58,665 nucleotides of DNA from a virus (taxonomy: Duplodnaviria > Caudoviricetes). The position numbers and the translations under genes were made by a program. Shown here one piece after another: positions 2,145-42,099 of this stretch. Where the stretch lies: positions 1 through 58,665 of the IMG/VR virus record IMGVR_UViG_3300036766_000466; one strand, 5' to 3'. Each line of letters opens with the position of its first letter. Positions within the stretch are counted from its first letter, which is position 1. The notes beneath the pieces are model-generated. The model made no database searches, was not told the DNA's origin, and saw only the letters and a list, made by a program, of their open reading frames with translations.

Positions 2145-2675
2145 TTATTGAAACCGCAGGAAGGGTCTTAAATCCTGGTAGATATATCCATCTCCTGTGT
2201 TTGATTCCGCATCTTCAAAATTCACGATCTTCGTTTCTGTTTTCTTGTGCCAGATCGCGCAGATTGGAAGACGCGTGTCCCCGGAGGGCGAGAGACTCGG
2301 AAGGGTTGGGCTTGCCGCTTCTGTCCCAGTTACGATTCGTAGATCACCCGATGGAGTGAGATAAACGATGTCTATTCTTGGGCTAACGGACGGGGCGGCC
2401 ATCGATGGAGAATCCCCGGAGCTGAAGAACGTGCGCTTGTCGTTATTCCCAGAACCGTAGTAGATCGGGTTGTAGTAGGAGGAGGCATCGCGCCCGCGTA
2501 CCAAGATTTTTAAATCGGCTGGATTGTGCGCCCTTGGCTGAAGAGGGATCATATCCAAAAATGCCAGGGCCTGAAGCTGTCGTTTTATATTCGCAATTAA
2601 AAATAATGCCGAATCGCCGGATGAGGGGAAGGTAACGTCGAGGTACGGGCGTGCGTTTGTAAACGGGTCAGCCAC
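2145..2675 (-). CDS. Minor tail/fibre-attachment virion protein
   Basis: PRIDIV...VTGTEAASPTLP motif typical of minor tail proteins; five [ST]GD motifs. Confidence 0.7.
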   Translation of the reverse strand: MADPFTNARPYLDVTFPSSGDSALFLIANIKRQLQALAFLDMIPLQPRAHNPADLKILVRGRDASSYYNPIYYGSGNNDKRTFFSSGDSPSMAAPSVSPRIDIVYLTPSGDLRIVTGTEAASPTLPSLSPSGDTRLPICAIWHKKTETKIVNFEDAESNTGDGYIYQDLRPFLRFQ

Positions 2676-2746
2676 TAATCAATCCTTTCGGTTTCATTGA
2701 TTCCAATAATTCTACAACCAAAAACCTATTTTTTCTATTAATACCG

Positions 2747-5700
2747 TCAAGGCGATGTTACCGTCAATTTCGCGTAGATGAGACGAATAATGGCGGTCGA
2801 TATTTTTGCCTGAATCAAGAATTTGAATTTCGCGTACCTTGTCGTATACGTCCCGGCGATAAAATTAACGAATGAGCTGAATGTAATCCCATCGGCGGAG
2901 GTCGCCCACTGCGCGATCATCGACCCCTGGCTATTCGAGGAGTATGCCTGCGTCTCCAAAATGAATGTTCCGGTGGTTGATACAAGGAGATCGATTATTT
3001 CGGTCGTGTAATTTTCCTGCGTCGTGATAAATGGATCAAACCCGAATCGCACCCCAGAGTTTTGGATGGCCAGCCACGTCGCGTAGTTTACCTGTAACGA
3101 CAACCACGTGTTGATTGTCTTTGGCTGGATTGTCATTCGGTAATACGCGGGGTTGTAATCAGTCGTCGGAACGAGATTAAGCCCGGATGAAATCGAACCG
3201 AATAGCGGATGAGGGAAATCTGTGATCCTGGAGAAAAGATCAAACTCGAACACGACAACCGAGCCCACCGGGGAGGTGGCCGTGACACTTGTACATGCGG
3301 CACCTGACGAATAATTCCCGCTTCGGTCGATGGCCTTAATGCAGTATTTTTTTGTCGCGGCCGGGACATTAAAAATATTGTAGTTCGTACCCCCGTATCC
3401 CGTGACAACAACCGACCCGGTTTCCCAAACCGAGTTTACATCGCCCTGCCTTACTTCGTAACCGAAGAGGTCTGCGTCCGCGATTGGGTTCCAAGATAGG
3501 GCAACGTGATCGACGGAGAAGACCCCGGATAAGCTCAAAACGTCCGACGGGGGGCTGACGTTTCCAAGAAGTGTGATGCTCGCCGTATTATTTCCGGGAG
3601 AGATGACCCCCTTTATCGTGACGGCCCTGACGCGCACCTTAACCACCGTTCCGTTCGGCGCGTTCCCGACCGTGACTATAAATGACGTGCTATTGCTGTT
3701 GGCCACGCCTGCGTCGCCCCAAGTCGATCCCTGATCGAGCGACACCTGGATGAGATAATAATTCAGGTTCAACAAAATATCGGCGGGCACTGCCGTCCAC
3801 GATACGGCGATATTTGTGATATGAGTGCCGTCGTTTAGTTGAAAACCCTGCTCCACAAGCGTGATATTTGTTGGGTCTGGCGGGACGGCATACGGGTTTG
3901 AGAAGGCCGGGATTATCATTTGTACCGGCCCGGCTCCGACATGATCGTCGTACAAGGACGGATTATACTCTTTGCAGGAGAACCTTATCTCTTCATTATC
4001 AGATTCTTGTGCGTTCGTAATTCTGAATAACTTTCTCGTGAATCTCGCGGACTGTTGGGTGACGCAAATAACATCACCCACCTCGCAATGAATCGAATCA
4101 AGCCGTGCGGAAAATTCAATATTGACCGCCGCATACTTCATGCTCGCCATTAAAAACTTCGCCATTCGGGAGGCTTGGCTCGCTCGCGTAATTCCCAAGA
4201 GTGATACATCCCTGGTGATGATGGTGTTCCTGTCGTCCTGATCTATTCGGTCGTCAACCTGCGTGTACACCTTCACGTAGTTTTGGTCAGGGTCAACCCA
4301 CTGCACGCGGAGTCTATTTGGGCGGTCGTCGATGGAGGGCATGTTCCAACTGAATGAATCTTTGACGATATTCCCCGGGTCGAAAGTCGCATTGGCCGCT
4401 GTCGTTGACCCATCCCCAAAGTATTGGGTGATCGGAGCGATTTTTTCAATCATCAATTTCACCTTGCTTCCCGAGTACACTAAAAAGCCACCAAAGGTGG
4501 CGAGCATGTCATTCAACGAATCCCCGGCCGGGCGTTGAGTATCAAGAATGTAATCAAGACGAAAGCGATGGTTTAGGCCGTCGTCTTGGCATATCAGAAA
4601 AGGATCAAAACCGTTCCACTGAAGTAAAATCCCCCACAATATTACTGGCTTCGCCGGAGACCCAGATACACTACTGCGAAGATAGAAATAAGTGTCTTGC
4701 GGCACAGCAACCTGGTTTGTGATGTCATTTGCGTCTGTATCGGTATTACTTAATGTGACGGACAGCGAGCTAACATTTTGCATTCCGGTTGCCAATGCGA
4801 GGGTGATTGATGCTCCTGCGCCTGGCGGAGCGTCGAACCCGCCATAAATATATAGATTTTTTAAAGAAACATTACCGAGCGCATTCCATTTTCCAATATT
4901 ATCTGTGCCATTATCTTGAAGCTCAGTCAGACCCAAAATACCTGTCCTAGTCGGTGGAGAGGAGGGAGTGAGACTATACGACAACGAAAGAAGTGGCATC
5001 CACGTCTGTCCGTCGGAGGTAAAAGTTAAAAGAACCGGATCGTATGTTCCTGATGCAAAACTACAAGACCACCTAGCCTCAGTGTTCGGCGGGAAGGCCC
5101 CAGTCCTGCCACCCTCAAAAATTATTTTATCCCCGGTGGCCACAGGAATCACTGTTGTGACATCTGTGATAAGGGTATCGGCTTCCCCAAGAACGTATGA
5201 AAATTGAACCGCGCCATTCTTGTGCAGTTTGAATGTTCTGCCAAATCCTACTCCGGGTGGAGTGTCTATTTGAAAGTAAAAGTTTTTAAGTATCCCGGTG
5301 GACGGAAAAGGAAATCCACCTCCCGCGGATACCTCCGCGGCAGTAATATAAAGACTTGTTCTATCAAAATTAATACCTGTCCCGCCCCACCATCCGCTGA
5401 ATAATCCGGCAAGAGTTCCGTTAAGTCTCGCTGAAGTACACCCCATCAACATAAAACTCGCCGAATTAAAAAGTATCACTGCGTCGAATTGTAATCCACT
5501 GGAATCCGGCGTTCCAGTCGGAACTATTTTCAGACTGATGGTGTCGCCCTGCGCGAAAGTGAGGATGGTTGTAAAATCAAACGCGGTTAGGCCCGTGTCA
5601 CTGATCGTAAGAGTTAGGCCGGTATCAATCTGGTTTTTCCTAACGGTAAATTGCCAAGATTTTCCTGCGCCTGGAATCACATTCAGCTTTATCTTAAATC

Positions 5701-5866
5701 CACCGACAAAGCACGCCTCAGAGCAAATCAAAAGCGATTGCATCTCATCCGATGAGGAAGTATTATCACCATTATCATTTGTAAACCCGAACGGAGAATA
5801 ACCCGTTACAGTATTGCTTCCAATCCTCCCCGACCCAATGAAATAAGGATAAGTAACGTTTGCCAT
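2747..5866 (-). CDS. Tail tip/host-specificity protein (J-like, Phage-tail_3 + FN3), C-terminal chain with ~430 aa N-terminal triple-repeat domain
   Basis: RPNRLRVQWVDPDQNY, GITRASQASRMA, CEVGDVI, EYNPSLYDD and FN3-like repeats; start placed at the TAATG overlap (5866). Confidence 0.85.
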   Translation of the reverse strand: MANVTYPYFIGSGRIGSNTVTGYSPFGFTNDNGDNTSSSDEMQSLLICSEACFVGGFKIKLNVIPGAGKSWQFTVRKNQIDTGLTLTISDTGLTAFDFTTILTFAQGDTISLKIVPTGTPDSSGLQFDAVILFNSASFMLMGCTSARLNGTLAGLFSGWWGGTGINFDRTSLYITAAEVSAGGGFPFPSTGILKNFYFQIDTPPGVGFGRTFKLHKNGAVQFSYVLGEADTLITDVTTVIPVATGDKIIFEGGRTGAFPPNTEARWSCSFASGTYDPVLLTFTSDGQTWMPLLSLSYSLTPSSPPTRTGILGLTELQDNGTDNIGKWNALGNVSLKNLYIYGGFDAPPGAGASITLALATGMQNVSSLSVTLSNTDTDANDITNQVAVPQDTYFYLRSSVSGSPAKPVILWGILLQWNGFDPFLICQDDGLNHRFRLDYILDTQRPAGDSLNDMLATFGGFLVYSGSKVKLMIEKIAPITQYFGDGSTTAANATFDPGNIVKDSFSWNMPSIDDRPNRLRVQWVDPDQNYVKVYTQVDDRIDQDDRNTIITRDVSLLGITRASQASRMAKFLMASMKYAAVNIEFSARLDSIHCEVGDVICVTQQSARFTRKLFRITNAQESDNEEIRFSCKEYNPSLYDDHVGAGPVQMIIPAFSNPYAVPPDPTNITLVEQGFQLNDGTHITNIAVSWTAVPADILLNLNYYLIQVSLDQGSTWGDAGVANSNSTSFIVTVGNAPNGTVVKVRVRAVTIKGVISPGNNTASITLLGNVSPPSDVLSLSGVFSVDHVALSWNPIADADLFGYEVRQGDVNSVWETGSVVVTGYGGTNYNIFNVPAATKKYCIKAIDRSGNYSSGAACTSVTATSPVGSVVVFEFDLFSRITDFPHPLFGSISSGLNLVPTTDYNPAYYRMTIQPKTINTWLSLQVNYATWLAIQNSGVRFGFDPFITTQENYTTEIIDLLVSTTGTFILETQAYSSNSQGSMIAQWATSADGITFSSFVNFIAGTYTTRYAKFKFLIQAKISTAIIRLIYAKLTVTSP

Positions 5867-6600
5867 TAGGTCGCTATGATCTCCTCGCAATAATCATACG
5901 CGGCCCCAAACGTCGCATCATCCAGGGCAGATACCGGCATCCCAAGTCCATATCTTTCGTTTGTCAGCACGTCCCGGATGATGGCGGCCGGATTTCTGGA
6001 GAATGAATCTCCCGTACTCCAAACCCCACCCTGCCAAGTCTTAATTTTCTTCCCCGCGCCAATGGATGTAATCGTTGGGTTTCCGCCTTTTAGCTGATCC
6101 GATGATGCGAGAGTTACCGAAAGATAGGCGAGATTCCGAAGGTTCATATTGGCGCTCAGAGAATCCCCTGAGGAGTTGACTGTCGGAACCCTAGAATCCG
6201 CGGTTTGCGTGTTCGTGCCAACATAGGCCGTCGCACTGCACCCTGGGGCTTCCTCCCCATTGGCTATGAGTAAATCGTTCGCCCTGATGTCTGAAAGGCC
6301 GCAAATCTCCCCCTCGCAGACACCGATAATTTTATTGATCGTAAGCCCCGCCTCGGATTGCCAGACGGTGTTCCCGGCTACTTTGAGGCGTCCGTAAAGG
6401 ATGGGAACAGCCAGTTCGTTGGTAGTCGTATTGTCCAGGAAGAAGGAGCCGTACCTGGGAGACCCACCCAGATCACCCTGAGACCCAAAACTGATCGTCG
6501 AGGGTTTTGGAGGGTTAAATATACTGTAGATGGCTATTCCGGCGGAGATGATGGCGAAGCCAGCGGCGATATATGGGAGCGCGGGAATCAAAAATGGCAT
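5866..6600 (-). CDS. Tail tip protein N-terminal chain
   Basis: VPILYGR..AGN, CEGEI, NLAYL, NPAAIIRDVLTNERYGLG, YDYCEE motifs of J-like N-terminal regions. Confidence 0.85.
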   Translation of the reverse strand: MPFLIPALPYIAAGFAIISAGIAIYSIFNPPKPSTISFGSQGDLGGSPRYGSFFLDNTTTNELAVPILYGRLKVAGNTVWQSEAGLTINKIIGVCEGEICGLSDIRANDLLIANGEEAPGCSATAYVGTNTQTADSRVPTVNSSGDSLSANMNLRNLAYLSVTLASSDQLKGGNPTITSIGAGKKIKTWQGGVWSTGDSFSRNPAAIIRDVLTNERYGLGMPVSALDDATFGAAYDYCEEIIAT

Positions 6601-6601: not shown

Positions 6602-7072
6602 TTAGTCTGTCCTATCTATGGCTTTATTTAATCTCATACCGCCAAAACAGCGATTCTTGACTTCCGTATCAAGAATTCTCACAAAACTTTTGTTGTCCAA
6701 TTCGCTTGAGAGATAGTGCCTGTTGTCCACCATCACCCCAAGCCCTGTCGGATACCGGCTGACTGACGCGTGCGCGTACAAAAGAATAAGATCAAACTTC
6801 CTTAGCTCTTGAAACGAAATAAGAGACCCATGTTTTTTAATTATTTCTAGCGTCTGAGACGGTTTCTTTTTAAACCAATGCTCTAACACCTTTCCGTTCT
6901 CCTGAATGTCTCTAGTAAAATCGTTATACGAAACTTTGACCCCATTGTCATTTAACCAAAGAAGTGCGATTCCCACGCAATCGGCGCCATCGAGCTTGCT
7001 ACCGCCATATTTGAAAGGAACATCGATGAATTTTGGATTGACCATGCTGTTCGCATCTATTTTTATGCTCAT
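6602..7072 (-). CDS. NlpC/P60-like tail assembly protein
   Basis: PFKYGG...GADCVGI motif; position between DUF2163 and the tail tip. Confidence 0.8.
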   Translation of the reverse strand: MSIKIDANSMVNPKFIDVPFKYGGSKLDGADCVGIALLWLNDNGVKVSYNDFTRDIQENGKVLEHWFKKKPSQTLEIIKKHGSLISFQELRKFDLILLYAHASVSRYPTGLGVMVDNRHYLSSELDNKSFVRILDTEVKNRCFGGMRLNKAIDRTD

Positions 7073-7986
7073 GCGCGGCGGACAAGCATATCCGGGATCG
7101 AAATAAATCCACCATACTCCGAATTATTCTGAAATCTATCCGTGCAATTTTGGAGTGTGTGGTCGCAGTCCCTCTGGATGGTGTACTGATCTCCGGCCAC
7201 CACGACGAAAGGGAAATTCGATTCGAGGTATAAATCACCCGTCGCGGTGGATTGGATAATGCGCCGTTTCACGCCGATGTTACCCGCCGTGCCACCCGTC
7301 ATTTGGATGATGCCTGGCGCCCAATAATCCCCGGACGCTCCCTCGCTTCGGGCCCCGTCCGTAAGGTGAACCTGGCTCGGGGTCGAATCGATTGTCTGGG
7401 CAGTTTTGGTGTCGAATAGCTGTGTCTGGTTTAGGTGTGCCGCGCAGTCCCCTGTATGACCAAACCTCCAATTGCAGACCCCCTGGTACGTCCTTCTCGG
7501 GATATTGAAGGCGAGGGATTGGAAGAAATTATTCCTGGCCTGGGCGGTGAACTTTGATTGGTTGAGCGCGGGCGCGTCAAGTACCCCGTCAAACATGACG
7601 ACAAAATTATTGCCGTCGCCGTCTGCGGGACTAGCTAGATAATCCGCAAACACCTTTCGGATTATGATTCGCTTTCCGCGTAGATCTAAATTTAAAAAAT
7701 ATTGGGAAAGGGTTCTGTCTACATTGTCGAGAGACAGGCTGACAGAATCAATCTTGGAATCGATATGCCGAGCGATTGGGCTTCGCCCTATTCCGAGACT
7801 GTTGAACGTTTTTGGAGTGCCGTCAACGTATGAAAAAAATTCTAATGCCCTATTTGTTACGGCAAAAAAAACGGTGTTGGAGTCAACGGTGGTGGTTGAC
7901 CCAAGATGGATATCCCACAATTCGATTGGCGCACTTTGTGGTTCTGCTTTACGTCTTAGAAATGCGGAGGACGGTGTGCGTGGCAT
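7069..7986 (-). CDS. DUF2163/BR0599-type tail hub protein
   Basis: Cys set C.WRF...C, CDHT..NC..RF.N...YGGF..IP. Confidence 0.85.
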   Translation of the reverse strand: MPRTPSSAFLRRKAEPQSAPIELWDIHLGSTTTVDSNTVFFAVTNRALEFFSYVDGTPKTFNSLGIGRSPIARHIDSKIDSVSLSLDNVDRTLSQYFLNLDLRGKRIIIRKVFADYLASPADGDGNNFVVMFDGVLDAPALNQSKFTAQARNNFFQSLAFNIPRRTYQGVCNWRFGHTGDCAAHLNQTQLFDTKTAQTIDSTPSQVHLTDGARSEGASGDYWAPGIIQMTGGTAGNIGVKRRIIQSTATGDLYLESNFPFVVVAGDQYTIQRDCDHTLQNCTDRFQNNSEYGGFISIPDMLVRRA

Positions 7987-8577
7987 TCAAATTATTTCCT
8001 GCAATTCCATCCCGTAATTCCACAACTCCCCCGTGAATGCCTCCCGGCTGATATTGTCGTCCTTAAATCTTGTCGAATAATAAAATCGGTAACTCGTGGC
8101 CCTTAGAACATCCCCCGACGGAAGCGCGGGACTGGTCGTAATCGCACCCGTATTGTTATTTATCGTGTATGTCGAATAAGCCAGATAGTCGCCGGTGCCT
8201 TTAACTGACCGCGTTAAAGATTCGCTCCCCGAGACGACAATTAAATCCCCGGTCGCAAAATCGACCTTGCCCCCAAGATAAAATAAACTCCTGACTCCAT
8301 CACCAGATCCAATGGTCTCGGCTGTTACCGGATTTTCATTTGGGTTCTGGAATAGGAATGTATTGAACGATCCCTTCATCCGGGTATAGAAACGCCAGAT
8401 GCTGTCGGTCTCTACCACCTGACGGGCGTCCAGCTTTACGCGAAAGGTGCGTCTAGGTTTTAACCATTTTTGATAACGCTGTTCCTTGCCGCTTTCACCT
8501 TCTGAAACGATGGTGAAAAATTGGATTGATTCTGAAAAAGGCGTGTCTAGTGTGTAGCTGAATACCTCGTTTCCCAT
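7987..8577 (-). CDS. DUF2460 (TIGR02217-like) distal tail protein
   Basis: GKEQR...W, G.GDG...F, RF..D motifs; position after tape measure. Confidence 0.8.
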   Translation of the reverse strand: MGNEVFSYTLDTPFSESIQFFTIVSEGESGKEQRYQKWLKPRRTFRVKLDARQVVETDSIWRFYTRMKGSFNTFLFQNPNENPVTAETIGSGDGVRSLFYLGGKVDFATGDLIVVSGSESLTRSVKGTGDYLAYSTYTINNNTGAITTSPALPSGDVLRATSYRFYYSTRFKDDNISREAFTGELWNYGMELQEII

Positions 8578-12365: not shown

Positions 12366-12820
12366 TTAATTTTTGACCATCTTTTAAAGTTTATAATCAT
12401 ACAAACTTCCGCTCTATGTACACCAAAACGCTTGGCAATCTCTCTTTGAAGAAATTGTCTCGTAGAATAAATTCTTCTTATCATCCTAACATCGCTGATT
12501 GAAAGTTTTGTCGTGCCATTTTTCGTTCTGCCCTTTAGCATACAATCGTGCATATTGTCTTTTTGATTGCCAGAAAATAGATGATCTGGATTGCAACAAG
12601 GCGGGTTATCACATTTATGGCATACCATCAATCCACGAATATCCTCACCAGTTTTTGCTTTGTAGACAGCACGATGAGCATATTCATAATTACTTTTTCC
12701 GTTATTTTTAGAAAAAAATGTTCCATAGCCAGTGCTTTTATTTATGGAACCCTGCCAAACCAGGCATCCTGTTTTATTTTTTTTAGTTCTTAAAAGAATT
12801 TGACTGAGAGTTTTGGTCAC
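12362..12820 (-). CDS. HNH homing endonuclease (HNH_3 type + C-terminal HTH)
   Basis: AHR...VCHKCDNPPCCNPDHLFSGNQKDNMHD; AT-rich. Confidence 0.93.
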   Translation of the reverse strand: MTKTLSQILLRTKKNKTGCLVWQGSINKSTGYGTFFSKNNGKSNYEYAHRAVYKAKTGEDIRGLMVCHKCDNPPCCNPDHLFSGNQKDNMHDCMLKGRTKNGTTKLSISDVRMIRRIYSTRQFLQREIAKRFGVHRAEVCMIINFKRWSKIK

Positions 12821-13707
12821 ACAACCGTCACTTTCATAGAATTCTGGACGCTCGCGTCGTCAACAAAAGCTGTAAAATTCAGCGTCTCCATAACGTATGA
12901 GGTCTGACTTTCCATCGGTCTGTCTGACGAGTCGTAGTTGATATTCAAAAGTTCGATCTTGAAACTCTTCGACCCGCGCACGTAATTGGCCGTGACCGCA
13001 GATATTTTGTTATTCATAAACCGATCACGGAAGGTCGTGGTCTCAAACAAGATTCCGATAGACCCTGAAACAAATGCTTTGGTGGCTAAAATATCCCGGC
13101 GCGTTCTCAGGTTTCCAAAGAGGTCAGTGACGAGATTATTTTCCTTCGCAACGGAGAAGGACACCACGGCTGTATTGACCACCCCGTCTAGGGTGAAGGT
13201 ACATTCCTCATGGCGGTAGGGGTCATCACCCGAAGGAAATGCCCCACTCGGAATCGTAGACGCGGGAACCCTGGCGTCCATGTCCTTGCCTTCGAGCGCC
13301 ACCGTACACCGAAGGTAGTCCCCCTGTTTACTTGAAAACTCAATACGGCCCACCATGTCGCCGGATGAGTAGACTGCCGCCAGATCACCCTCCTGAGCCT
13401 CAATAGCAAGCGAGGAAAGTGGTATTTGGGGGGTATACGGGCCCGTTCCTCCGATACCCGCCTCCCACCATTGGGTGGGGTTCTGAGGGGATACTGGGAA
13501 GGTAACACTGCCGGTTAGAAGGGAATGGACAAAACGGCCCCCGGTTTGTTCGGGGGTGGCACGGATGCGGTCGTTATAGGCGTAAATATTGGAGGCATTA
13601 AAACGAGAGGATTCGACGACTTGCCAGGAATCGATACCACCGCCAGAACCGAAAGAGGCTTCTTTTCTAAGACCTACAGCACCACGAGCGACGATTGAAA
13701 CGGCCAT
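12817..13707 (-). CDS. Major tail tube protein
   Basis: KEASFG N-terminal motif, size and position upstream of the chaperone. Confidence 0.8.
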   Translation of the reverse strand: MAVSIVARGAVGLRKEASFGSGGGIDSWQVVESSRFNASNIYAYNDRIRATPEQTGGRFVHSLLTGSVTFPVSPQNPTQWWEAGIGGTGPYTPQIPLSSLAIEAQEGDLAAVYSSGDMVGRIEFSSKQGDYLRCTVALEGKDMDARVPASTIPSGAFPSGDDPYRHEECTFTLDGVVNTAVVSFSVAKENNLVTDLFGNLRTRRDILATKAFVSGSIGILFETTTFRDRFMNNKISAVTANYVRGSKSFKIELLNINYDSSDRPMESQTSYVMETLNFTAFVDDASVQNSMKVTVV

Positions 13708-15315: not shown

Positions 15316-15318
15316 GGA

Positions 15319-15519: not shown

Positions 15520-15534
15520 GCCATGTCTCCCCTG

Positions 15535-24648: not shown

Positions 24649-24649
24649 T

Positions 24650-25289: not shown

Positions 25290-25295
25290 ATTCTA

Positions 25296-25703: not shown

Positions 25704-25706
25704 TTT

Positions 25707-31337: not shown

Positions 31338-32576
31338 TCATATAACAACTTCAAATTTCTTCGGCTTCATGAACGGGATTTCCATCTCCATAAACAATGC
31401 GTGCCAATCGTCGAGCACACGATCCCACGTGTAGCTCGTGGCAAAATCATACCCCGCCCTTGCTATCGAATCCCGGTACGGCTTGTCCTTGTATACCCTC
31501 AAAAACGACTTCAGGGCCGCGTCCGCGTCCGGGACAGGCCGTTGTGTAAGGTGGCTTCCTGTCCACGTAAGGGAGCCGCCGATGGGCACCAAATCGGCCC
31601 TTCCTGCGGCCCCAAGCTCTGCGCTCGCCGAGTGGTCAAGGAGGATGCACGGGAGCCCCGTAGCCATCGCCTCGAACGTGGGAAGGCCGAAACCCTCCCC
31701 TGACAGAAGCACGAAGGCATCGGCAATCTGGTAAAGCTCGGCCAGACGCTCGTTTGGAAGGAGCATCATCTCATGCCCAGAGTGAGCGACTTGGTCGAAG
31801 TACATAATGCTTCTATTTTTTAGCTCAAGCACCTGTAGCAGGTCGTCTATTTTCCACCCCATCGGATCGTCAAAGTACATGTGTGGCCACAGGATTACTT
31901 TTTCTTTTGTCTCCGGAAGCTCCGAAAACCGCTTCCATACCCTTAAAAGCTCCGGGATATTTTTCCTCGATTGGTTGCGACAGACGGTCAAAAATACAAA
32001 TTTATCTGTTAATCCGTACCGCTCTCTTATTTCCTGCCGTTTCTTTTTGTCACCAGGGTTAAACATTTTTGTATCGACGCCGTGGTAGATCGTGCGGATT
32101 CTGTTCCTTGTCTCCTGGTCAAATATGGATTTAAGAATGGCGTTTTTGGCATAGTCCGTGTATGCCACTGGGATATCAATATCCTCAATGATCGGTTTTA
32201 TGGCAGGGGGCAGGCCGCCACCGATTGGCTCACCATCAACTGGGCAATAACTACTCCACTGAAAAAATCTTCTCGTCCTGCAAATATTTGGGTCGGCAAT
32301 ATAATAAAGGTGCCAGAAGTCCCCAATGGTCAGGAGAACATCAGGTTGAAATTTATTCACAACTGAATCCAATATGTCCGCTCCGTAGTGTTGGTTATTC
32401 GTGAACCAACAGCGGATTCCTTCCGGGTTGGTTGCTGGAATCTCAGAGTGTTGGAACCAGCCAATGTGCCCGATCTCGTGTCCGCGCTTTTGAAGGCCCA
32501 AGCATAACTCATTTGTCAGTCGTCCCATTCCTGACATGATATTCAGGGAATCACTCATGCAGAGGATACGCATCAA
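31338..32576 (-). CDS. GT4 family glycosyltransferase
   Basis: HGVD, RNQSRKN, GEGFGLPTFEAMATG. Confidence 0.92.
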   Translation of the reverse strand: MMRILCMSDSLNIMSGMGRLTNELCLGLQKRGHEIGHIGWFQHSEIPATNPEGIRCWFTNNQHYGADILDSVVNKFQPDVLLTIGDFWHLYYIADPNICRTRRFFQWSSYCPVDGEPIGGGLPPAIKPIIEDIDIPVAYTDYAKNAILKSIFDQETRNRIRTIYHGVDTKMFNPGDKKKRQEIRERYGLTDKFVFLTVCRNQSRKNIPELLRVWKRFSELPETKEKVILWPHMYFDDPMGWKIDDLLQVLELKNRSIMYFDQVAHSGHEMMLLPNERLAELYQIADAFVLLSGEGFGLPTFEAMATGLPCILLDHSASAELGAAGRADLVPIGGSLTWTGSHLTQRPVPDADAALKSFLRVYKDKPYRDSIARAGYDFATSYTWDRVLDDWHALFMEMEIPFMKPKKFEVVI

Positions 32577-33079
32577 ATATCTCCCGGTAAAGTTTGCTGT
32601 GTGAAAAGTCGTGAGGCGATCATGTCAACTTGCGCGACCAAAATATGTGCGTCATCGGAGATTTCGCTTTTTGTATACGACACCCCTGATATATCTAGCG
32701 GCTTGTCCAAGTAGTTTTCTCCTGCTATCGCAAGGCGTGTTCCGCGCACGACGCTTAAAAAATCAACCACGAAATTCGTAATCCCCTTTCCTTCTCCAGC
32801 GGGCCGCGTTGAATCTCCAACGATTGATGTTTCGCGGGTAAGGTATTTCAAAATGAGGTAGGCGCTCACCTGGTTCACGGCCTGTTTCCTTTGGCTTGCG
32901 ACCCACGCCTCCTGTGTTCTGGCCGGCCAAAAGCACACCTTTGGCAGGGTTGGAAGGAAAACTGTGGTTAGCATCAAATCAGGGTGGATGATTTCAACGC
33001 TTCCGATGTAGGAGAGTGCGCCACCCGAAGACTTATTGTTGGCGACGAGGGTCTTTAGGCGAGGCAGGATTACATTCAC
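32573..33079 (-). CDS. Probable tail terminator/completion protein
   Basis: Size, position after adaptor, LP...(G.KGI..F..D) pattern. Confidence 0.6.
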   Translation of the reverse strand: MNVILPRLKTLVANNKSSGGALSYIGSVEIIHPDLMLTTVFLPTLPKVCFWPARTQEAWVASQRKQAVNQVSAYLILKYLTRETSIVGDSTRPAGEGKGITNFVVDFLSVVRGTRLAIAGENYLDKPLDISGVSYTKSEISDDAHILVAQVDMIASRLFTQQTLPGDI

Positions 33080-33639
33080 GAATCAGATTCCCTGTCGTCC
33101 GCGATTTCGTCCAATAGGCCAGGACTGACCTCTTGGTTTTTAATATCATCCAGATCAAATATGGCGGGGCGGCTCTGTTGCCTTATGTCATCTGCCTCGT
33201 TCGGGACAACGCCCGCAAATTCTGGCAGTTGCATCTTGCTTTGAGATATGAGGACGAGGAATCCAGGGGACATTGGGTTTGTTGAAATATATTGATCGTA
33301 ATAATTCAGCTTTTTATCGTCTGGCATTTTTCCAAGAAGGACATGGGCACTACGCCAGACAAAGAACATGCCGATGTCAGACCCTGCCTCGTCTAAAAAT
33401 TTAGGAACCGCGGCGACAGTCGTAACAGGGACATTGTCAGCGTACACGGGGGCGAGAAAACTATTTATAAGGCGAGTGGCCCGCCGGATCGACGCGACGA
33501 TAAGCGCACCTGGGATTTCCGCCTCGTCTACTACGTGACCAGGAGAGTTTGTTTGCAGGTAGGCATTGATCTCATTACGCACGTCACCGGACGAACCGTA
33601 GAGGACTTCTGTGGAATCGGAAGGATTTAAAAAAGCCAT
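33076..33639 (-). CDS. Head-tail adaptor (gp36/DUF1320-like)
   Basis: Y.S..DV...A..LINSFL...Y...P.....P motif. Confidence 0.7.
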   Translation of the reverse strand: MAFLNPSDSTEVLYGSSGDVRNEINAYLQTNSPGHVVDEAEIPGALIVASIRRATRLINSFLAPVYADNVPVTTVAAVPKFLDEAGSDIGMFFVWRSAHVLLGKMPDDKKLNYYDQYISTNPMSPGFLVLISQSKMQLPEFAGVVPNEADDIRQQSRPAIFDLDDIKNQEVSPGLLDEIADDRESDS

Positions 33640-35208: not shown

Positions 35209-35601
35209 TTAAGCCCTCCTGATCTGAAGGAAGCAAGTGATAGTGTCTCCGGAGGTACCTGCAGAACCTGCTCCACCCTCTTCCGAGACGCCGACGATCC
35301 CGTCACCAGTCGCTCCACCCAAATTCGAAACCCGACCCTGCGAGTCCGAAAGAATAAGAGGAACTCCCTTTGTAACGGCCGCCGAGATAACAACCAGGGA
35401 CTTCCCAAGTTGTCTCACGCGGACGGTGTCGCCAGACGCTGTCGTAGCGTTCTGGATAACACCTGCGATGCCTGCGGCCTTCGCCGTACCGAGAGTAACA
35501 AACCCCTGTGTTGAAGAGTAGGTCACAACGCGGTACTTCGATATGGCCTGGTCTGCCTGCCAGGTATCCTCCATGATATTAATGTCACCACGAAGTGGCA
35601 T
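35209..35601 (-). CDS. Capsid cement/decoration protein (DUF2190-like)
   Basis: Small Gly/Ala/Thr-rich beta protein with GD.V.V...G motifs upstream of MCP. Confidence 0.8.
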   Translation of the reverse strand: MPLRGDINIMEDTWQADQAISKYRVVTYSSTQGFVTLGTAKAAGIAGVIQNATTASGDTVRVRQLGKSLVVISAAVTKGVPLILSDSQGRVSNLGGATGDGIVGVSEEGGAGSAGTSGDTITCFLQIRRA

Positions 35602-37955: not shown

Positions 37956-38753
37956 TCAGAGTCCGACTCCCACAAGGTTACGGGTTATTTTACGTCCGGT
38001 CGAAACTATTGCTGGTGCTGGAGCGGCGGCTGGGACGACGTAGGCATGACGGGAGAAACCACGAGGAAGATAGATACCATTTATCGGTGGGCCCGAATTA
38101 AAGAATTTCGTTCCTGTGACCGCCCCATGTTGTCTATTTCCACTATAATCTCCCTCAAATGATCCTACCCCGCTTAGGAGATATAATCTTTTTAGCCCAT
38201 TCGTGACAGACCCAGGATAAACCATCGTCCGTATAAACTCATTCCCAGATATCACTCTATTGAATATTTGAAGGTATGCCATCAGTCCGTAATAGGGCCT
38301 TATCAGATTTGCCGTATTTCCAATTATTAACGATGTATTGGAATTATCCGATGGAGACACCCCGTCTTGCTTCGCTGAATAATTCACCTCTAACAGATTT
38401 TTATACATATGGATATCCGTTGCTATGGAAGACCCCGTATGGGTGACAATCCAAAATTGCCATATATTGTAGACAACATCCGTATTTGTTCCGACTCTAT
38501 TTAATTCCGTTCCTCCTGTTATCGCAAAATACAATGCGCCATTTGCCCCGCCACCCTGATCTGCTCTAAGATCAAATCCATTGGAATTATTAAGCCCCCT
38601 GGATATTATTCTTGAATTGCCTGCCCCTGCTCCAAGTCCAAATTGGTTTAGCCAAATACATATTGTCAGGGGTTGGTTTTCTAAAAGGACATCATCCAGG
38701 GCTCCGCAATTCACGCTATCGGTTGATGCTCCACCAGCAAAGAATCTGGACAC
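37956..38753 (-). CDS. LamG/ConA-like lectin domain virion protein
   Basis: LTICIW, W...VT, MYKN, LIIG, G.MAYLQIFNR, DYSGN..HG. Confidence 0.85.
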   Translation of the reverse strand: MSRFFAGGASTDSVNCGALDDVLLENQPLTICIWLNQFGLGAGAGNSRIISRGLNNSNGFDLRADQGGGANGALYFAITGGTELNRVGTNTDVVYNIWQFWIVTHTGSSIATDIHMYKNLLEVNYSAKQDGVSPSDNSNTSLIIGNTANLIRPYYGLMAYLQIFNRVISGNEFIRTMVYPGSVTNGLKRLYLLSGVGSFEGDYSGNRQHGAVTGTKFFNSGPPINGIYLPRGFSRHAYVVPAAAPAPAIVSTGRKITRNLVGVGL

Positions 38754-39292
38754 TAGGAAACGTCTATCCTAAGAAGCGGCGGAAGCGTCAAATCCCATCC
38801 TCCTTTGAGCGTATCGCCAGATGTGCCAAGCGGCTCGCGCCTCATAATAATCACAAGGCGATCACTGGCGGCCACTGGAAGCTGTGCATCGAAACTCGCT
38901 ACACCCGCAAGAGACGACATGACGGAAACATTCTCATCACCAGACGCACCAACTCCCAATAATTTATTCGGAACGATGACAACCGGGATATCCGGTGTAT
39001 CTCCAGTCGGTTGCGTCTCGGCTGAAATATGTAAAAGAACCATCCCGGCCGACCCAGAAGCATTTACATGGTGAAGCACTAAATCCCAAGCAGGGGTTCC
39101 CGCGACATTCTTAGGTATGTTTCCTGAAAACACCATGAGTCCTTCACCGGAAGGCATTGATGGATTTGCAAAGCGGTCGAATCTATAACGTGCCTCGTAC
39201 CAAAGCGGCCCGTTTTGAAGTGTCCAATAGGCGTTGGCATTGGTCGGATTGACTACGGAAAGTTCTAAGGGAATTTCAATCGTCGTTGCCAT
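38753..39292 (-). CDS. Hypothetical virion protein (beta-sandwich)
   Basis: In fibre operon; three [ST]GD motifs. Confidence 0.7.
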   Translation of the reverse strand: MATTIEIPLELSVVNPTNANAYWTLQNGPLWYEARYRFDRFANPSMPSGEGLMVFSGNIPKNVAGTPAWDLVLHHVNASGSAGMVLLHISAETQPTGDTPDIPVVIVPNKLLGVGASGDENVSVMSSLAGVASFDAQLPVAASDRLVIIMRREPLGTSGDTLKGGWDLTLPPLLRIDVS

Positions 39293-42099
39293 TAGAAAGC
39301 ATCATCCGCTTGGTAGGTCACATCATATTTTATAGGTTTAGTAGAGCTTGATTCAAAACTAAGAGCCGCGCCTGCCGTCGTTGCAAAAAGAAACTCGCCT
39401 CCGTTTGAGTTGACCTGTTTTACAATACCTTCTCGTGACGCCAATTCCCATTCTGTCGTGAGCTGGGTTCCTGATGCCCCAGACGCAAAGAATCCTCTGG
39501 CGTTATCCCCATCACCTTGCAAAGAGTATGATAAAACCTTCAATCTTTTTCCTGCGACAGCCGCAATGATGGATGTTGAGCCCGCTCCTGAAACTCTCCC
39601 AGCTTTATTTAAAATAACAGCCACTGAATTTGAGGCATTGTATGTGTCACCGGAAGCGTTTACAAGCGCAACCGCGAGAGGATTAGACCGTGTGTAATCG
39701 AATACCGTTGTTTTGATACTCTGGTCAACACCGTCAATAAGTCTGGTATCGCCGCTTACTGGGAAACGTGTGAAGATCGTTGTTGACGGGATGACACTCA
39801 AATCACCCGATGCACTTATCCTCGCCCCGATCGATCCTCCGATGACATTCACTCCGACGGTTCCGCCAAGCTGTCCGATTACCGTAGTCGGGTTTGCTCT
39901 TAAAAGAACGTCGCCCGTTATGGCTACCGCCCATGCTCCGGCTTGTTTACTTTGCACATCACCAGACACACCAGTCGAGCCGCCAGATTGTCCACCGACT
40001 ATCTGGACTCCGACCACACCTTGCTGGATTACGTTTAACGAGTCACCGGATATCGAGACACGGCCACCTACAGAGCCACCAATCACGTTTACACCTAGAG
40101 TATTTCCGATTTGTCCGATGATGGTGTTAGGATTTGCCCTCAACAACACGTCGCCTGTTATCGCAGTAGCCCACCCGCCTTGTTGAGACACGGGAAGCGT
40201 ATCCCCTGAAACAGAAATGCGGGCTGTCCCGCCACCTACGATCTGAACCCCAAGAACGCCGGCGAGACTTACGTTCCCGATATTCACCCCAGGATTTGCG
40301 CGTAGCAAAACGTCCCCGGTGACAGCTACACCCCAAGCGCCAGCCTGTTTGGATTGAACGTCGCCTGAAACTCCGACCGTGCCGTGGCCAGTGCCTCCTG
40401 TGATATAAACTCCTGCCACGCCTTGAGGGACAACATTGAGGGAGTCGCCGGATATGGACACGCGACCGCCAGGGTTCAAAACTTGTACACCGACCGGTGT
40501 TGCGACAGTCACGGTTCCTATATTTGTTGATGGATTGGCTCGAAGGAGAACGTCGCCTGTGACTGCCACACCCCACGCGCCCTGTTGATTAACGAGAAGC
40601 GTGTCACCAGAAATACTCACGCGGGCACCGACCGACCCACCTATGACCTGGACTGCTACGGTGCCTTGCTCGCGCACGGGCCATGTTTGTCCGCCGGCGG
40701 GCCTTGTGTTGATCGGATTTACCGTGTCCCCCGTAAGAGCGACGGCCCATGCCCCTTGTTGGCTTACGGGTAGTTGGTCGCCTGAGACTGAAACCCTCGC
40801 GCCTATCGAGCCGCCAATCACCTGAACGCCTATTTGCCCGGAGAAGGTTACCGGCACGGAACCGGCTATCGAGACCGGCCAGGTTTGTCCTGCCAAGGGT
40901 TTTGTTGAAACGTCTCCAGAAATTCCAATCGGGGCGGTGACGGCACCTATCGACACGCCACCTGGAAACGATACAGCCACTGTATCATCGCTTGCGATTA
41001 CGACGCGGAGAGTTCCCGTATCTGTTGTGCCTGCCCCGACCGAGGTCGTGTTTCCTGAAACTTGGTTTAGGTTCACATTGCTCGCCGCGCCTCCCGCTCC
41101 AAGCGCGTTATAAATATCACCGGAGGCATTTGCCAGAGCGACGACCAAAGGATTCGATCTTAAAAATTGTTTTACTGTGGCCGCAATGGACGGGCTAACA
41201 CCGTCCATTATTCTTCCGTCGCCACTTGTCGGGAACGGCTTGAAATTTGTTGTGGACGGCACGACATTTAAATCGCCCGATGCGCTGATCCTGGCCCCAA
41301 TGGAACCACCGACCACGTTCACGCCGACGACATTTCCGATTTGGCCTATAATTACACCGGGGTTCGCTCTCAGGAGAACGTCACCGGTGACAGCGATCGC
41401 CCAAGCACTTTGTTGAGTGACCGCTAACGTATCGCCAGATATAGAAACACGGTTTGTACCACCGCCGACTACTTGGACACCGACAACACCTTGCTCACGG
41501 ACAGGCCACGTCTGCCCGGCCTTCGGAGTGGTTGATACGTCGCCCGAAACACCGATTGGCGCCGTCACGATGCCGATTGAAACACCGCCAGGGAAGGAAA
41601 CAGGTTGGGTTACCGCCGAGCCATCCACTTTGACAGCGAGGGCGTTTCCACCACGCACAAGAACGTCGCCAGAAATACCGACTGGGTTCGCACTGGTTGC
41701 CCCGGAGACATTCACCGTTCCCGCGATAGAGACAGGCCAGGTTTGTCCTGCTAACGGCTTGGTAGATGCGTCGCCCGTGACCGCGACGGCCCACGCCCCG
41801 GCTTGAGTGCTTGTGACACCACCTGGAAATGAGACTGGGACGGTCGGTTGATCCGTCGCCAGGACGACGCGCAAAGTTCCCGCGCTCGCGTTGCCAGTGT
41901 TTACGTCAGCCGCGGTGCCGACCCCCTGATTTAAATTTACGTTGGAGGATGCCCCGCCCGCTCCGAGGGCGTTGTAGACGTCTCCGGAGATATTGACGAG
42001 TAGGACGGGGATGGCATTGGCACGTGCGAGAGGGCGCACATGAAGTGCGGTTATTGGCGTCTCATTTTGCCCACCGCTGACAATCCGCGTGTCAGACAC
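39292..42099 (-). CDS. Gly/Val-rich repetitive fibre protein
   Basis: Repeats QQGAWAVAVTGDVLLRANP, GQTWPV, RVSISGD; 25 [ST]GD motifs counted by hand. Confidence 0.8.
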   Translation of the reverse strand: MSDTRIVSGGQNETPITALHVRPLARANAIPVLLVNISGDVYNALGAGGASSNVNLNQGVGTAADVNTGNASAGTLRVVLATDQPTVPVSFPGGVTSTQAGAWAVAVTGDASTKPLAGQTWPVSIAGTVNVSGATSANPVGISGDVLVRGGNALAVKVDGSAVTQPVSFPGGVSIGIVTAPIGVSGDVSTTPKAGQTWPVREQGVVGVQVVGGGTNRVSISGDTLAVTQQSAWAIAVTGDVLLRANPGVIIGQIGNVVGVNVVGGSIGARISASGDLNVVPSTTNFKPFPTSGDGRIMDGVSPSIAATVKQFLRSNPLVVALANASGDIYNALGAGGAASNVNLNQVSGNTTSVGAGTTDTGTLRVVIASDDTVAVSFPGGVSIGAVTAPIGISGDVSTKPLAGQTWPVSIAGSVPVTFSGQIGVQVIGGSIGARVSVSGDQLPVSQQGAWAVALTGDTVNPINTRPAGGQTWPVREQGTVAVQVIGGSVGARVSISGDTLLVNQQGAWGVAVTGDVLLRANPSTNIGTVTVATPVGVQVLNPGGRVSISGDSLNVVPQGVAGVYITGGTGHGTVGVSGDVQSKQAGAWGVAVTGDVLLRANPGVNIGNVSLAGVLGVQIVGGGTARISVSGDTLPVSQQGGWATAITGDVLLRANPNTIIGQIGNTLGVNVIGGSVGGRVSISGDSLNVIQQGVVGVQIVGGQSGGSTGVSGDVQSKQAGAWAVAITGDVLLRANPTTVIGQLGGTVGVNVIGGSIGARISASGDLSVIPSTTIFTRFPVSGDTRLIDGVDQSIKTTVFDYTRSNPLAVALVNASGDTYNASNSVAVILNKAGRVSGAGSTSIIAAVAGKRLKVLSYSLQGDGDNARGFFASGASGTQLTTEWELASREGIVKQVNSNGGEFLFATTAGAALSFESSSTKPIKYDVTYQADDAF

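Follow-up and report, generated by a model that had tools for sequence, protein, structure and literature searches.

An S-G-D tripeptide enriched in the virion proteins of an uncultured siphovirus clade, a candidate sequon for a phage-encoded glycosyltransferase cassette

The autotransporter heptosyltransferases AAH and TibC (BAHTs) O-heptosylate serines in the beta-helix repeats of AIDA-I and TibA, and they do so as a dodecameric ring that transfers ADP-heptose to Ser of the beta-helix substrate. Bacteroidota use a general O-glycosylation sequon, D-(S/T)-(A/I/L/V/M/T), to which a lipid-linked glycan is transferred en bloc in the periplasm of the cell. GT9 enzymes are classically LPS heptosyltransferases. 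B12-binding radical SAM enzymes (B12-rSAM) also tailor sugars. To our knowledge, virion glycosylation by phages has been described in a few mycobacteriophages, without a tie to a short portable motif. Their capsid and tail proteins receive sugars from glycosyltransferases that the phage itself encodes (Freeman et al. 2023, Cell Host Microbe, cited in PMC12619734), and the available passages of PMC12619734 place the glycans at the C-termini of capsid and tail tube subunits. In published practice such phage glycosyltransferases are interpreted as modifiers of host LPS or DNA, and those encoded beside tail-fibre genes as agents of O-chain modification (PMC7029224, in the passages available). The passages of PMC4358343 describe the Cys4 iron finger of TibC as unique to that enzyme and involved in substrate recognition; they give no strict tripeptide sequon for BAHTs, and the word 'consensus' is absent from that text.

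The window, i.e. the whole stretch of 58,665 nucleotides analysed here (IMG/VR record IMGVR_UViG_3300036766_000466), encodes virion proteins rich in the tripeptide [ST]GD together with a cassette of glycosyltransferases. As in the mycobacteriophage passages, the enzymes would be the phage's own and the putative substrates, read from genes, its own virion proteins. The locus differs from that account in that the capsid protein carries no site in five lineages (the window, G001, G003, G005 and G006), the sites in the tube fall within the chain, at residues 115 and 159 of 296, the sites form internal loops over eight or more proteins, the enzyme set is GT4, GT4, GT9 and B12-rSAM, and a discrete tripeptide is implied. 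The tripeptide resembles the Bacteroidota sequon in combining Ser/Thr with Asp within three residues found on many unrelated proteins, but the order and spacing of the residues are not the same, and the phage has a cassette of soluble glycosyltransferases.

The cassette and its GT9 enzyme

Four genes form a core common to all lineages, GT4b-GT4a-(inserts)-GT9-B12-rSAM, which keeps its order and always lies, within the late structural operon, between the genes for the head-tail connector and the one for the tail tube. In the window an accessory island is also present:

31338..32576, minus strand: GT4b glycosyltransferase, core cassette (Pfam Glycos_transf_1)
29397..30560, minus strand: GT4a glycosyltransferase, core cassette (Pfam Glycos_transf_1 and GT4-conflict)
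28492..29400, minus strand: GT9-family glycosyltransferase, core cassette (PF01075, 74.9 bits against a cut-off of 22)
26822..28228, minus strand: B12-binding radical SAM enzyme, core cassette (Pfam B12-binding and Radical_SAM)
13794..26828, minus strand: accessory island (SPASM radical SAM, ParB_N, pterin-binding domain, 686-aa radical SAM, nucleotidyltransferase, GT2, SIS/GmhA-like, GHMP/HddA-like kinase, three methyltransferases, NUMOD3 endonuclease, MetK)

GT4b occupies the same position in G001, G003, G005, G006 and L033-L037, GT4a is kept in all cassette lineages, and the B12-rSAM gene adjoins GT9 in G001, G003, G005 and G006. The GT9 homologues of G005 and G006 also exceed the PF01075 cut-off of 22 (35.8 and 23.4 bits). 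The accessory genes are absent from the four-gene island of G003; a methyltransferase and the SPASM radical SAM enzyme recur in G005 and G006. The SPASM gene adjoins the tube gene in the window, G001, L046 and L047 and lies within the cassette of G005 and G006, and the NCBIfam models that it matches best, peptide maturases among them, all score far below cut-off. A further GT4 is encoded at 50162-53150 of the window, along with a nucleoside phosphorylase, a phosphoribosyltransferase and a MazG-like protein.

PDB matches of the GT9 enzyme are 3tov, WaaF, TibC and WaaC. Its C-terminal Cys4(His) cluster (C259, C264, H265, C268 and C274) is invariant in 56 sequences and five lineages and directly follows the stretch aligned with TibC 214-326, the cluster segment itself being unaligned. 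The enzyme resembles BAHTs in being GT9-related and in its putative action, read from genes, on multiple Ser of repetitive beta-rich surface proteins in the cytoplasm. The NCBIfam name 'strand-loop-strand O-heptosyltransferase' finds a parallel in the placement of the phage motif at loop-to-strand junctions in the DUF2460 model, and the invariant cysteines of the phage enzyme, a putative metal-type cluster, lie after the sugar-nucleotide-binding block at a place comparable to that of the TibC finger. The phage enzyme differs in length (302 aa against 406), in cysteine spacing (C-x4-C-x3-C-x5-C against Cys-339/342/358/370 in the TibC passages of PMC4358343) and in its putative substrates, which would be many unrelated virion proteins.

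Membership of the BAHT family is not supported (TIGR04414, 38.7 bits against a cut-off of 200). The enzyme lacks a TibC-type N-terminal beta-barrel (residues 1-97, preceding an atypical N-lobe, in the passages of PMC4358343); its residues 1-60 instead align to the usual GT9 N-lobe as found in 3tov and WaaC. Assignment as LPS heptosyltransferase I (TIGR02193, 56 bits against 185.3), II (TIGR02195, 56.1 against 134.6) or III (TIGR02201, 58.5 against 170.2) is not supported either; the enzyme scores higher on these models than on the Aah/TibC model, and no NCBIfam cut-off is reached. WaaC, WaaF and WaaQ (CAZy GT9) are its best sequence matches and share Pfam PF01075 with it, whereas the invariant Cys4(His) cluster and the location in a virion operon set the phage enzyme apart.

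The first-pass annotation proposed a heptose-containing, methylated coat, but the heptose-pathway matches all lie far below NCBIfam cut-offs. Equivalog models did not recognise the GDP-D-glycero-alpha-D-manno-heptose pathway (GmhA, HddA, GmhB, HddC) in the window: GmhA reached 58.9 of 209 bits, HddA 112.6 of 600 and HddC 36.1 of 300, with MurU-like models scoring higher on the last, and no GmhB-type phosphatase was seen among Pfam and NCBIfam profile matches. The cut-offs passed by heptose-pathway genes are those of superfamily-level Pfam models. No such gene occurs in the G003 cassette, and GT2, GmhA/HddA/nucleotidyltransferase, MetK and the methyltransferases are all absent from the G003 island, so that a heptose-containing methylated glycan would be at most a feature of the window's clade.

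[ST]GD in the structural modules of the window

Motifs were counted in 79 minus-strand ORFs of at least 50 aa, and every hand count of SGD/TGD in the first-pass annotation was reproduced exactly. The excess is real and exceeds what was first reported: these ORFs hold 55 [ST]GD, whereas 5000 shuffles average 11.4 (sd 3.3) and never exceed 25; when the fibre at 39292-42099 is left out the count is 30 against 10.3. The suggested comparison of structural with non-structural ORFs was made with gene classes set before counting and 3000 shuffles. Shuffling predicts 3.04 sites in the tail module and 1.96 in the head module (fibre excluded); the observed counts are 19 and 8, each reached in 0/3000 shuffles, while the island enzymes (2 against 2.97) and the remaining window ORFs (1 against 2.17) are at background. 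The motif does, as proposed, mark virion proteins, the excess being confined to the structural modules. In the same 79-ORF count no site was present in the tape measure, terminase, MetK or capsid protein of the window, and its enzymes have at most one each.

As DNA, the 55 sites take 36 different nine-base forms, and the window's remaining five reading frames hold 3-11 sites, placing the signal at the protein level. In an unbiased tripeptide scan of the window without the fibre, SGD ranks first of 5965 (18 against 5.4; P 1.4e-5, uncorrected). Ser or Thr occupies 46-60% of the x-G-D tripeptides in the structural modules of the window, G001 and G003 (52/86, 36/72 and 32/67, respectively), against 14% expected, and 3/44, 2/29 and 0/11 in their other proteins. 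The sites lie in the following proteins:

2145..2675, minus strand: 176-aa tail accessory protein, family unassigned, 5 sites
2747..6600, minus strand: J-like central tail fibre, split, 2 sites in a 244-aa ORF (the tail-tip ORF at 5866-6600) and 1 in a 1047-aa ORF
7069..7986, minus strand: DUF2163/BR0599 tail hub protein, 3 sites
7987..8577, minus strand: DUF2460 distal tail protein, 4 sites
12817..13707, minus strand: tail tube protein (Phage_tube_2), 2 sites (residues 115 and 159 of 296)
33076..33639, minus strand: 187-aa head-tail connector (weak Mu Gp36 match), 1 N-terminal site
35209..35601, minus strand: 130-aa putative cement/decoration protein, 3 sites
38753..39292, minus strand: 179-aa protein, 3 sites (P 0.0003 by shuffling)
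39292..42099, minus strand: 935-aa repeat fibre, head module, 25 sites

Recurrence over unrelated folds was also borne out, with sites in the tube, DUF2460, DUF2163, putative cement and fibre proteins, and is not a property of a fold. The DUF2460 protein (196 aa in the first-pass annotation) matches PF09343 (82.9 bits against a cut-off of 30.4) and a solved Dit structure, the RcGTA distal tail protein 6TBA (E 1.8e-9). At its four sites S/T, G and D are each kept in 318/320 cells across 80 homologues, and N, D, A and G never stand at position 1, which a role for the hydroxyl would predict. In a predicted model (pLDDT 89.3) all four sites lie at loop-to-strand junctions, a placement by secondary structure in this one protein. 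Of these four positions, RcGTA Dit has MGD at one and AGD at another, and GD is missing from the remaining two, indicating that Ser/Thr is a clade-specific addition.

The tube sites fall in two identical columns in the window, G001, G003 and G005; the G006 tube has lost both and carries one site elsewhere, and among distant tube homologues the motif stands at either column in 0/28. The three sites of the putative cement protein occupy identical columns across five lineages (31-82% identity). Its identity is an atlas lead (score 0.96): the window protein reaches 13.1 bits against a cut-off of 24 for PF09956 Phage_cement_2, which 3/6 homologues match (best E 3.1e-4), PHROGs instead place it in a 'head scaffolding' family (3.9e-10), and its structure model has a pLDDT of 31.5. 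Connector homologues with one site are found in G001, G003, L033, L034, L035 and L037, and the 179-aa protein has no Pfam or PHROG match.

Other sites are mobile. All 4 sites of the DUF2163 homologue in G003 lie outside the columns used in the window, and the G003 J homologue (1077 aa) has 12, all within residues 543-1048 and with no internal repeat. Homologues of the 176-aa protein carry 7 sites in L012 (partial) and 8 in G001 (389 aa). In the fibre each [ST]GD heads a diverged internal repeat unit at a spacing of 16-70 residues, so its 25 sites are not independent events; no DNA tandem repeat was found in the gene, and 22/22 fibre homologues carry 7-27 sites against about 1 expected. LamG-domain proteins are encoded beside the fibres in the head modules of the window, G003 and L035.

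Phages with and without the cassette

SGD is the top tripeptide in unbiased scans of four other cassette-bearing records (P 2e-10 to 9e-29), with 25 observed against 5.1 expected in G001, 26 against 3.5 in G003, 27 against 4.2 in G005 and 44 against 4.4 in G006. Five controls lack the cassette, having no GT9, GT4 or B12-rSAM, and none shows an excess: SGD ranks 656 in G002, and observed and expected counts are 2 and 6.2 in 5W, 6 and 8.2 in ctuI7215, 9 and 6.8 in KT1, and 5 and 6.8 in Effie. DUF2460 and DUF2163 homologues of cassette-less phages carry the motif in 0/7. At the cassette position G002 has a different glycosyltransferase (triple GT2) and L039 a GDP-mannose dehydratase, making the controls 'different cassette' or distant phages and not sister taxa; among the phages compared no close relative with the cassette lost was found.

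Capsid homology (36-80% identity) links all cassette-bearing phages into one clade, and the association of motif and cassette is thus a single phylogenetic contrast. Given this homology, cassette and motif may each have a single origin. From the sequences compared, the ancestral motif is S-G-D, with Thr enriched only in the window's clade. Some sites, as in the cement and tail tube proteins, stay in place, others shift position between lineages, and the motif is also dense in proteins with no BLAST match to the window, i.e. a 667-aa protein of G005 (12 sites) and a 1180-aa protein of G006 (27 sites). These comparisons support a motif that is under selection, virion-specific, independent of fold and co-occurs with phage glycosyltransferases wherever checked.

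A candidate acceptor site and its alternatives

The best explanation is that the tripeptide is an acceptor site, which we judge to be somewhat probable from its co-occurrence with the cassette within one phage clade. S-G-D (and T-G-D in the window's clade) would be a recognition tripeptide on loops of external virion proteins, i.e. the tail tube, distal tail protein, hub, J-like tip, accessory tail proteins, putative cement and repeat fibres, and would be read by the phage-encoded modification cassette. We infer the modification itself, the glycan on Ser/Thr and the initiating enzyme. Most likely a glycan would be O-linked to the Ser/Thr hydroxyl in the cytoplasm of the host; of the three glycosyltransferases conserved throughout, GT9 or one of the GT4 pair would attach the first sugar and the remaining two would lengthen the chain, with the B12-rSAM enzyme in a tailoring role. 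In some lineages methyltransferases, SPASM radical SAM and sugar-nucleotide enzymes could add further tailoring. The first-pass annotation had assigned the acceptor to the GT9, GT4 and GT2 enzymes of the island; the genes common to all lineages are the two GT4s, GT9 and the B12-rSAM enzyme, which that annotation did not name, and GT2 is missing from the G003 island.

Alternatively, the motif may be an unmodified structural or assembly idiom, a Ser/Thr-capped G-D turn into a beta-strand that serves folding, metal binding or docking of a virion partner such as the LamG-domain proteins, while the cassette does something else. The predicted junction placement of all four DUF2460 sites would suit this, as would the G-D already present at two of them in RcGTA Dit, the fixed positions of cement and tube sites across lineages, the LamG-domain proteins in three head modules (window, G003 and L035) and the fibre, where the tripeptide heads every repeat unit and could be a repeat-defining turn. 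A fold-bound turn nevertheless fails for the four new columns in G003 DUF2163 and the twelve scattered sites in G003 J, and it leaves unexplained the excess in proteins without a BLAST match between lineages. Furthermore, homologous folds of cassette-less phages lack the motif (7/7 proteins; 0/28 tubes), and N, D and G, usual at position 1 of ordinary turns, are never seen there in DUF2460 homologues. We consider this idiom unlikely.

An improbable variant makes the tripeptide a radical SAM target, in which the B12-rSAM enzyme, or the SPASM enzyme where present, methylates, epimerises, oxidises or cross-links an S-G-D residue and the glycosyltransferases act elsewhere. B12-rSAM belongs to the four-gene core of every lineage, the SPASM enzyme by the tube gene or in the cassette has its sub-cut-off peptide-maturase matches, MetK in the window would supply SAM, and G and D are invariant to the same degree as S/T. 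Against this, S/T interchange alone is tolerated, which points to the hydroxyl as the functional group, B12-rSAM enzymes can also act in sugar tailoring, no match reaches a family cut-off, and the G003 cassette has no SPASM enzyme, yet its motif is fully enriched.

It is very doubtful that the cassette modifies host LPS or phage DNA and that the motif is an unrelated host-interaction feature, e.g. a weak adhesion or ion-binding loop, even though the best NCBIfam and PDB matches of GT9 are WaaF/WaaQ/WaaC-like and the GT4, nucleoside phosphorylase, phosphoribosyltransferase and MazG-like genes at 50162-53150 would fit such a role. In every lineage the cassette sits inside the late structural operon, in the connector-to-tube interval, an unusual place for DNA-modification or lysogenic-conversion genes, and restriction of the motif to cassette-bearing phages would be a coincidence. 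The Cys4 cluster is also undescribed for LPS heptosyltransferases in the TibC-WaaC comparison within the passages of PMC4358343. Chance, a compositional artefact or a by-product of fibre repeats can be dismissed: the fibre repeat units do give 25/55 sites and the window-only P of 1.4e-5 without the fibre fails correction for about 6000 tripeptides, but the per-protein shuffles, class test and x-G-D test all hold without the fibre, the codons are diverse, and the replicated scans, with SGD first in four further records, refute it.

Returning to the acceptor-site reading, its fullest form is offered tentatively: this wide uncultured siphovirus clade could have its own general protein-glycosylation system, with a strict S-G-D sequon, that lays a coat on all exposed virion parts except the capsid shell protein by means of a soluble set of two GT4s, a new Cys4-bearing GT9 subfamily and a B12-rSAM enzyme, the sequon being rewritten into each newly acquired tail or fibre protein. 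If true, phages would gain their first example of virion glycosylation directed by a sequon, and GT9 its first protein-directed member beyond the autotransporter heptosyltransferases; the frequent glycosyltransferase islands inside phage structural operons would be explained as well. Such a tag would also provide a sequence rule to predict glycosylated virion surfaces straight from metagenomes and a small cytoplasmic glyco-tagging system for engineering. The minimal cassette is the four-gene one of G003, and the 130-aa protein with its three invariant sites would be a small substrate.

Gene layout and enrichment of the [ST]GD tripeptide

The window, 58,665 bases long, is an IMG/VR virus record in its own right (completeness estimate 64%), and its long ORFs are all on the minus strand. 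No close cultured phage was found, portal identity being at best about 28%; the fibre had no match among deposited phages, and GT9 had only distant LPS-type matches there (23-28% identity).

Genes of the window in transcription order (all minus strand)
Terminase, then portal-MuF fusion
39292..42099, repeat fibre (935 aa), then a 179-aa protein and a LamG-domain protein
Protease, then scaffold-like protein
35209..35601, putative cement protein (130 aa), then capsid protein
Head-tail connector genes, then an enzyme-encoding island spanning roughly 19 kb
Tail tube, tape measure, DUF2460 distal tail protein, DUF2163 hub, NlpC/P60 peptidase, J-like tip protein
Small tail accessory proteins, last in order

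Every hand count of SGD and TGD in the first-pass annotation was reproduced in the 79 minus-strand ORFs, which together hold 55 [ST]GD where shuffling each protein gave a mean of 11.4 (sd 3.3), or 30 against 10.3 without the fibre. Gene classes were fixed before counting and 3000 shuffles were run; the tail and head modules were in excess and the island and remaining genes were not, so the proposed division between structural and non-structural ORFs held.

Observed [ST]GD by gene class, shuffle mean, and shuffles reaching the observed count
Tail module: 19; 3.04; 0/3000
Head module without fibre: 8; 1.96; 0/3000
Island: 2; 2.97; 2394/3000
Remaining genes: 1; 2.17; 2694/3000

SGD ranked first of 5965 tripeptides in an unbiased scan, even without the fibre. 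[ST]GN was rejected as part of the motif, its sites being scattered with no clustering in virion proteins. A DNA-level signal was likewise rejected: 36 distinct nine-base words spell the 55 sites, and each of the other five frames has a background number (3-11 sites), so the signal is one of protein and not of DNA. The fibre is a chain of diverged 16-70-residue units, each opened by the tripeptide, with no tandem repeat at the DNA level; its 25 sites, though old and conserved, should not be counted as independent events. Separately, 3 of the 36 motif serines have an AGY codon, compared with 308 of all 1253 serines (one-sided binomial P 0.013), a scarcity that fits sites derived from, or interchanging with, Ala, Pro or Thr codons via single first-base changes.

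Several other features of the window were recorded. The J-like tail tip gene (2747-6600) is divided between ORFs 5866-6600 and 2747-5890, which overlap in different frames and are both matched by a single 1190-aa protein of the related record G001 (6519-5875, frame -2; 4567-2744, frame -1); possible causes of the split are a frameshift, a faulty assembly, or programmed slippage around 5866-5890. A 632-aa TonB-dependent receptor with Plug and beta-barrel domains (53237-55135), unusual in a phage record, hints at a Gram-negative host. A second cluster (50162-53150), in which another GT4 accompanies a PNP/UDP-type nucleoside phosphorylase, a phosphoribosyltransferase and a treble-clef/MazG-like protein, may be a nucleotide or DNA-modification module apart from the structural-operon island. 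The record ends with an Imm5-like immunity-protein homologue and a DUF6745/glycine-zipper protein (56220-56885 and 57701-58654). Two homing-endonuclease-like genes (12362-12820 and 23426-24133; HNH_3, and NUMOD3 plus endonuclease domain) are inserted, one in the tail module and one within the island, and a NUMOD3/HNH gene is also present at the equivalent region of locus L039. In three lineages the head module encodes LamG/concanavalin-like lectin-domain proteins beside the motif-rich fibres (window 37956-38753, L029:6367-8550 and L035:4273-7454); these proteins could be glycan-binding, perhaps recognising a glycan of the virion itself.

Relatives with and without the cassette

Relatives were recovered with DUF2460, capsid, GT9 and tube queries. 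G001 (59 kb; capsid 78% and DUF2460 62% identical to the window) has the complete island and the same motif pattern, and also encodes a 144-aa protein with three sites and no window match. In G003 and G004 (capsid 53%, tube 44% and DUF2460 31% identity; GC 41%) the island position holds only four genes, the core cassette of GT4b, GT4a, GT9 and B12-radical-SAM, and sites number 4 in cement, 2 in tube, 3 in DUF2460, 4 in DUF2163, 12 in the J-like protein and 0 in the capsid protein. G005 and G006 (capsid 36-40%, tube 37-38% and GT9 about 32% identity) keep the four core genes in unchanged order, with a methyltransferase, a SPASM radical SAM, an aldo-keto-reductase-like protein and an unknown protein inserted between them. 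The shorter loci L033-L037, L046 and L047 are consistent with this picture where they overlap it. SGD ranked first in the tripeptide scan of each sufficiently complete cassette-bearing record. The motif enrichment is confirmed and extends to five cassette lineages (the window, G001, G003, G005 and G006); TGD shows no enrichment in G003, G005 or G006, and the ancestral motif is therefore S-G-D.

SGD in cassette-bearing relatives: observed, expected, P
G001: 25; 5.1; 2e-10
G003: 26; 3.5; 1e-14
G005: 27; 4.2; 1e-13
G006: 44; 4.4; 9e-29

The GT9 and DUF2460 match lists have 13 entries in common, paired by size of the longest sequence, and fibre homologues carry 7-27 sites in 22 of 22 cases, seven of which pair by sequence size with the GT9 or DUF2460 lists, which is indirect evidence that the three genes travel together. 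Three further observations concern these records. In L046 (31.6% G+C) the tube gene follows homologues of two radical SAM genes, the 686-aa and the SPASM one, and the base composition of the clade is therefore wide, at 32-50%. The tripeptides CSD, SDC and DCI occur 13, 12 and 10 times in G001 (L018-L020), where about 1.3 would be expected, which suggests that this record encodes a Cys-Ser-Asp repeat protein. Directly upstream of the protease gene, G005 (24550-24876, 4 SGD) and G006 (13738-14064, 3 SGD) encode 108-aa proteins that, at roughly 100 residues, are the densest non-repeat carriers seen; neither has a window counterpart by BLAST.

The first-pass proposal that motif density should differ between phages with and without the island was borne out: SGD is the top tripeptide in cassette records and shows no excess in five phages without the cassette. 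G002 (DUF2460 28% identical) is without GT9, GT4 and B12-radical-SAM; SGD ranks 656 there, with one site in DUF2460 and none in DUF2163. It was rejected as a glycosyltransferase-free control because a 787-aa triple-GT2 protein occupies the same module position (L022:12960-15323), and therefore serves as a 'different cassette' control. The deposited phages 5W, ctuI7215, KT1 and Effie, whose tail tips are homologous, gave no BLAST match to island genes and contain 2, 6, 9 and 5 sites against 6.2, 8.2, 6.8 and 6.8 expected. The motif is in none of their seven DUF2460 and DUF2163 homologues, and for 5W, ctuI7215 and Effie x is S/T in 5-9% of structural-module x-G-D. Single-sequence search found no tube relatives among viral contigs, and an exhaustive search yielded 28 distant homologues (23-32% identity), in none of which the motif stands at a tube column; 26 do not have it at all. 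Since cassette-less homologues mostly do not have the motif, it is not a property of the DUF2460, DUF2163 or tube folds. L039, the one candidate for a close relative that lost the cassette, was rejected as a control, as it is only 7.2 kb long and its capsid gene is followed downstream by one for a GDP-mannose 4,6-dehydratase (L039:5577-6566). This dehydratase and the triple-GT2 protein of G002 both occupy the slot between connector and tail genes, which seems to be a general position, or hot spot, for sugar-modification cassettes.

Conservation and turnover of the sites

The G-D excess in structural modules comes wholly from dipeptides that follow Ser or Thr, against a composition expectation of about 14% S/T among x-G-D.

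S or T at x among x-G-D
Window, structural modules: 52/86
Window, structural modules without fibre: 27/59
Window, island and rest: 3/44
G001: structural 36/72; other 2/29
G003: structural 32/67; other 0/11

At the four DUF2460 sites in 80 homologues (54-82% identity), S/T fills 318 of 320 cells and G and D 318 each; N, D, A and G never occur at motif position 1, and the mean top-residue frequency is 0.98 in motif columns against 0.75 in the others. The solved RcGTA distal tail protein aligns across all four sites, with M-G-D and A-G-D at two and no G-D at the other two, so that at some sites the G-D turn is older and the hydroxyl residue before it was added by this clade. All four sites lie at a loop-to-strand junction in the DUF2460 model (pLDDT 89.3). 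There is no extended consensus beyond a small-residue preference at -1 of non-fibre sites; fibre sites have V/I there. The cement model (mean pLDDT 31.5) was left out of the analysis, and the cement profile had no significant match among solved structures.

Some sites are fixed and others turn over. The three cement sites occupy identical columns across the five lineages (31-82% identity), and the window, G001, G003 and G005 have two tube sites in common; both were lost in G006, which carries one at another position. DUF2163 of G003 has four sites, none at the window's three columns, and its DUF2460 has one column in common with the window plus two new sites, one within an inserted loop. The G003 J protein has 12 sites at residues 543-1048 in unrelated local contexts and with no internal repeat. 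S/T fills 12 of 15 x-G-D in a 667-aa tail protein of G005 and 27 of 30 in an 1180-aa protein of G006, neither with a BLAST match among window proteins. That density is kept while positions shift, newly acquired proteins included, indicates that selection acts on the tripeptide itself and not on the geometry of one fold.

Island enzymes and the sequon reading

GT9 is a clear PF01075 member, although no cut-off was reached against the NCBIfam subfamilies for LPS heptosyltransferases or Aah/TibC. A C-x4-R-C-H-x2-C-x5-8-C cluster is invariant in 56 sequences and the five lineages, down to 31% identity, and starts 20 residues past the block aligning to TibC residues 214-326. TibC binds a ferric ion on Cys-339, 342, 358 and 370, an iron finger that its authors, in the available text, term unique and tie to dimerisation and protein-substrate recognition (PMC4358343). 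The phage cluster is a suggestive parallel; however, its Cys spacing differs, its segment did not align with TibC, and GT9 is without TibC's N-terminal barrel. GT9 is therefore perhaps like the bacterial autotransporter heptosyltransferases in action, but not a member of their family. By analogy with the GtfA/GtfB pair of serine-rich-repeat adhesins, it is equally plausible that the two adjacent GT4 genes would form the initiating pair. A heptose-containing glycan, as first proposed, has accessory-gene matches, but these are far below cut-off, no GmhB was seen in the window, and the genes are missing from G003.

The main rival reading of the island is that it modifies host LPS, as glycosyltransferases adjoining tail-fibre genes in pelagimyophages were interpreted to do in the available text of that study (PMC7029224). 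Mycobacteriophage virion glycans are placed on the C-termini of capsid and tail tube subunits in a passage of PMC12619734 that cites the original study, and PMC8402811 deals with host lipid glycans of a cystovirus. The literature searched gave no account of S-G-D or T-G-D as an acceptor motif, whether phage or bacterial; supplements to the mycobacteriophage original could bear on it. The capsids of all cassette-bearing records are homologous, so the cassette may have originated just once, and likewise the motif, and no close relative that has lost the cassette is among the recovered records; the link between motif and cassette therefore rests on co-occurrence in one large clade, turnover and biochemical plausibility. 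Co-occurrence and turnover favour the first-pass reading of [S/T]GD as the acceptor site of the island glycosyltransferases, with heptose a candidate sugar and GT9 one candidate initiator. On balance, we infer that a glycosylation sequon is the best available explanation of [ST]GD. If so, this would be protein glycosylation of a phage or bacterial type with an unusually crisp, portable recognition motif.
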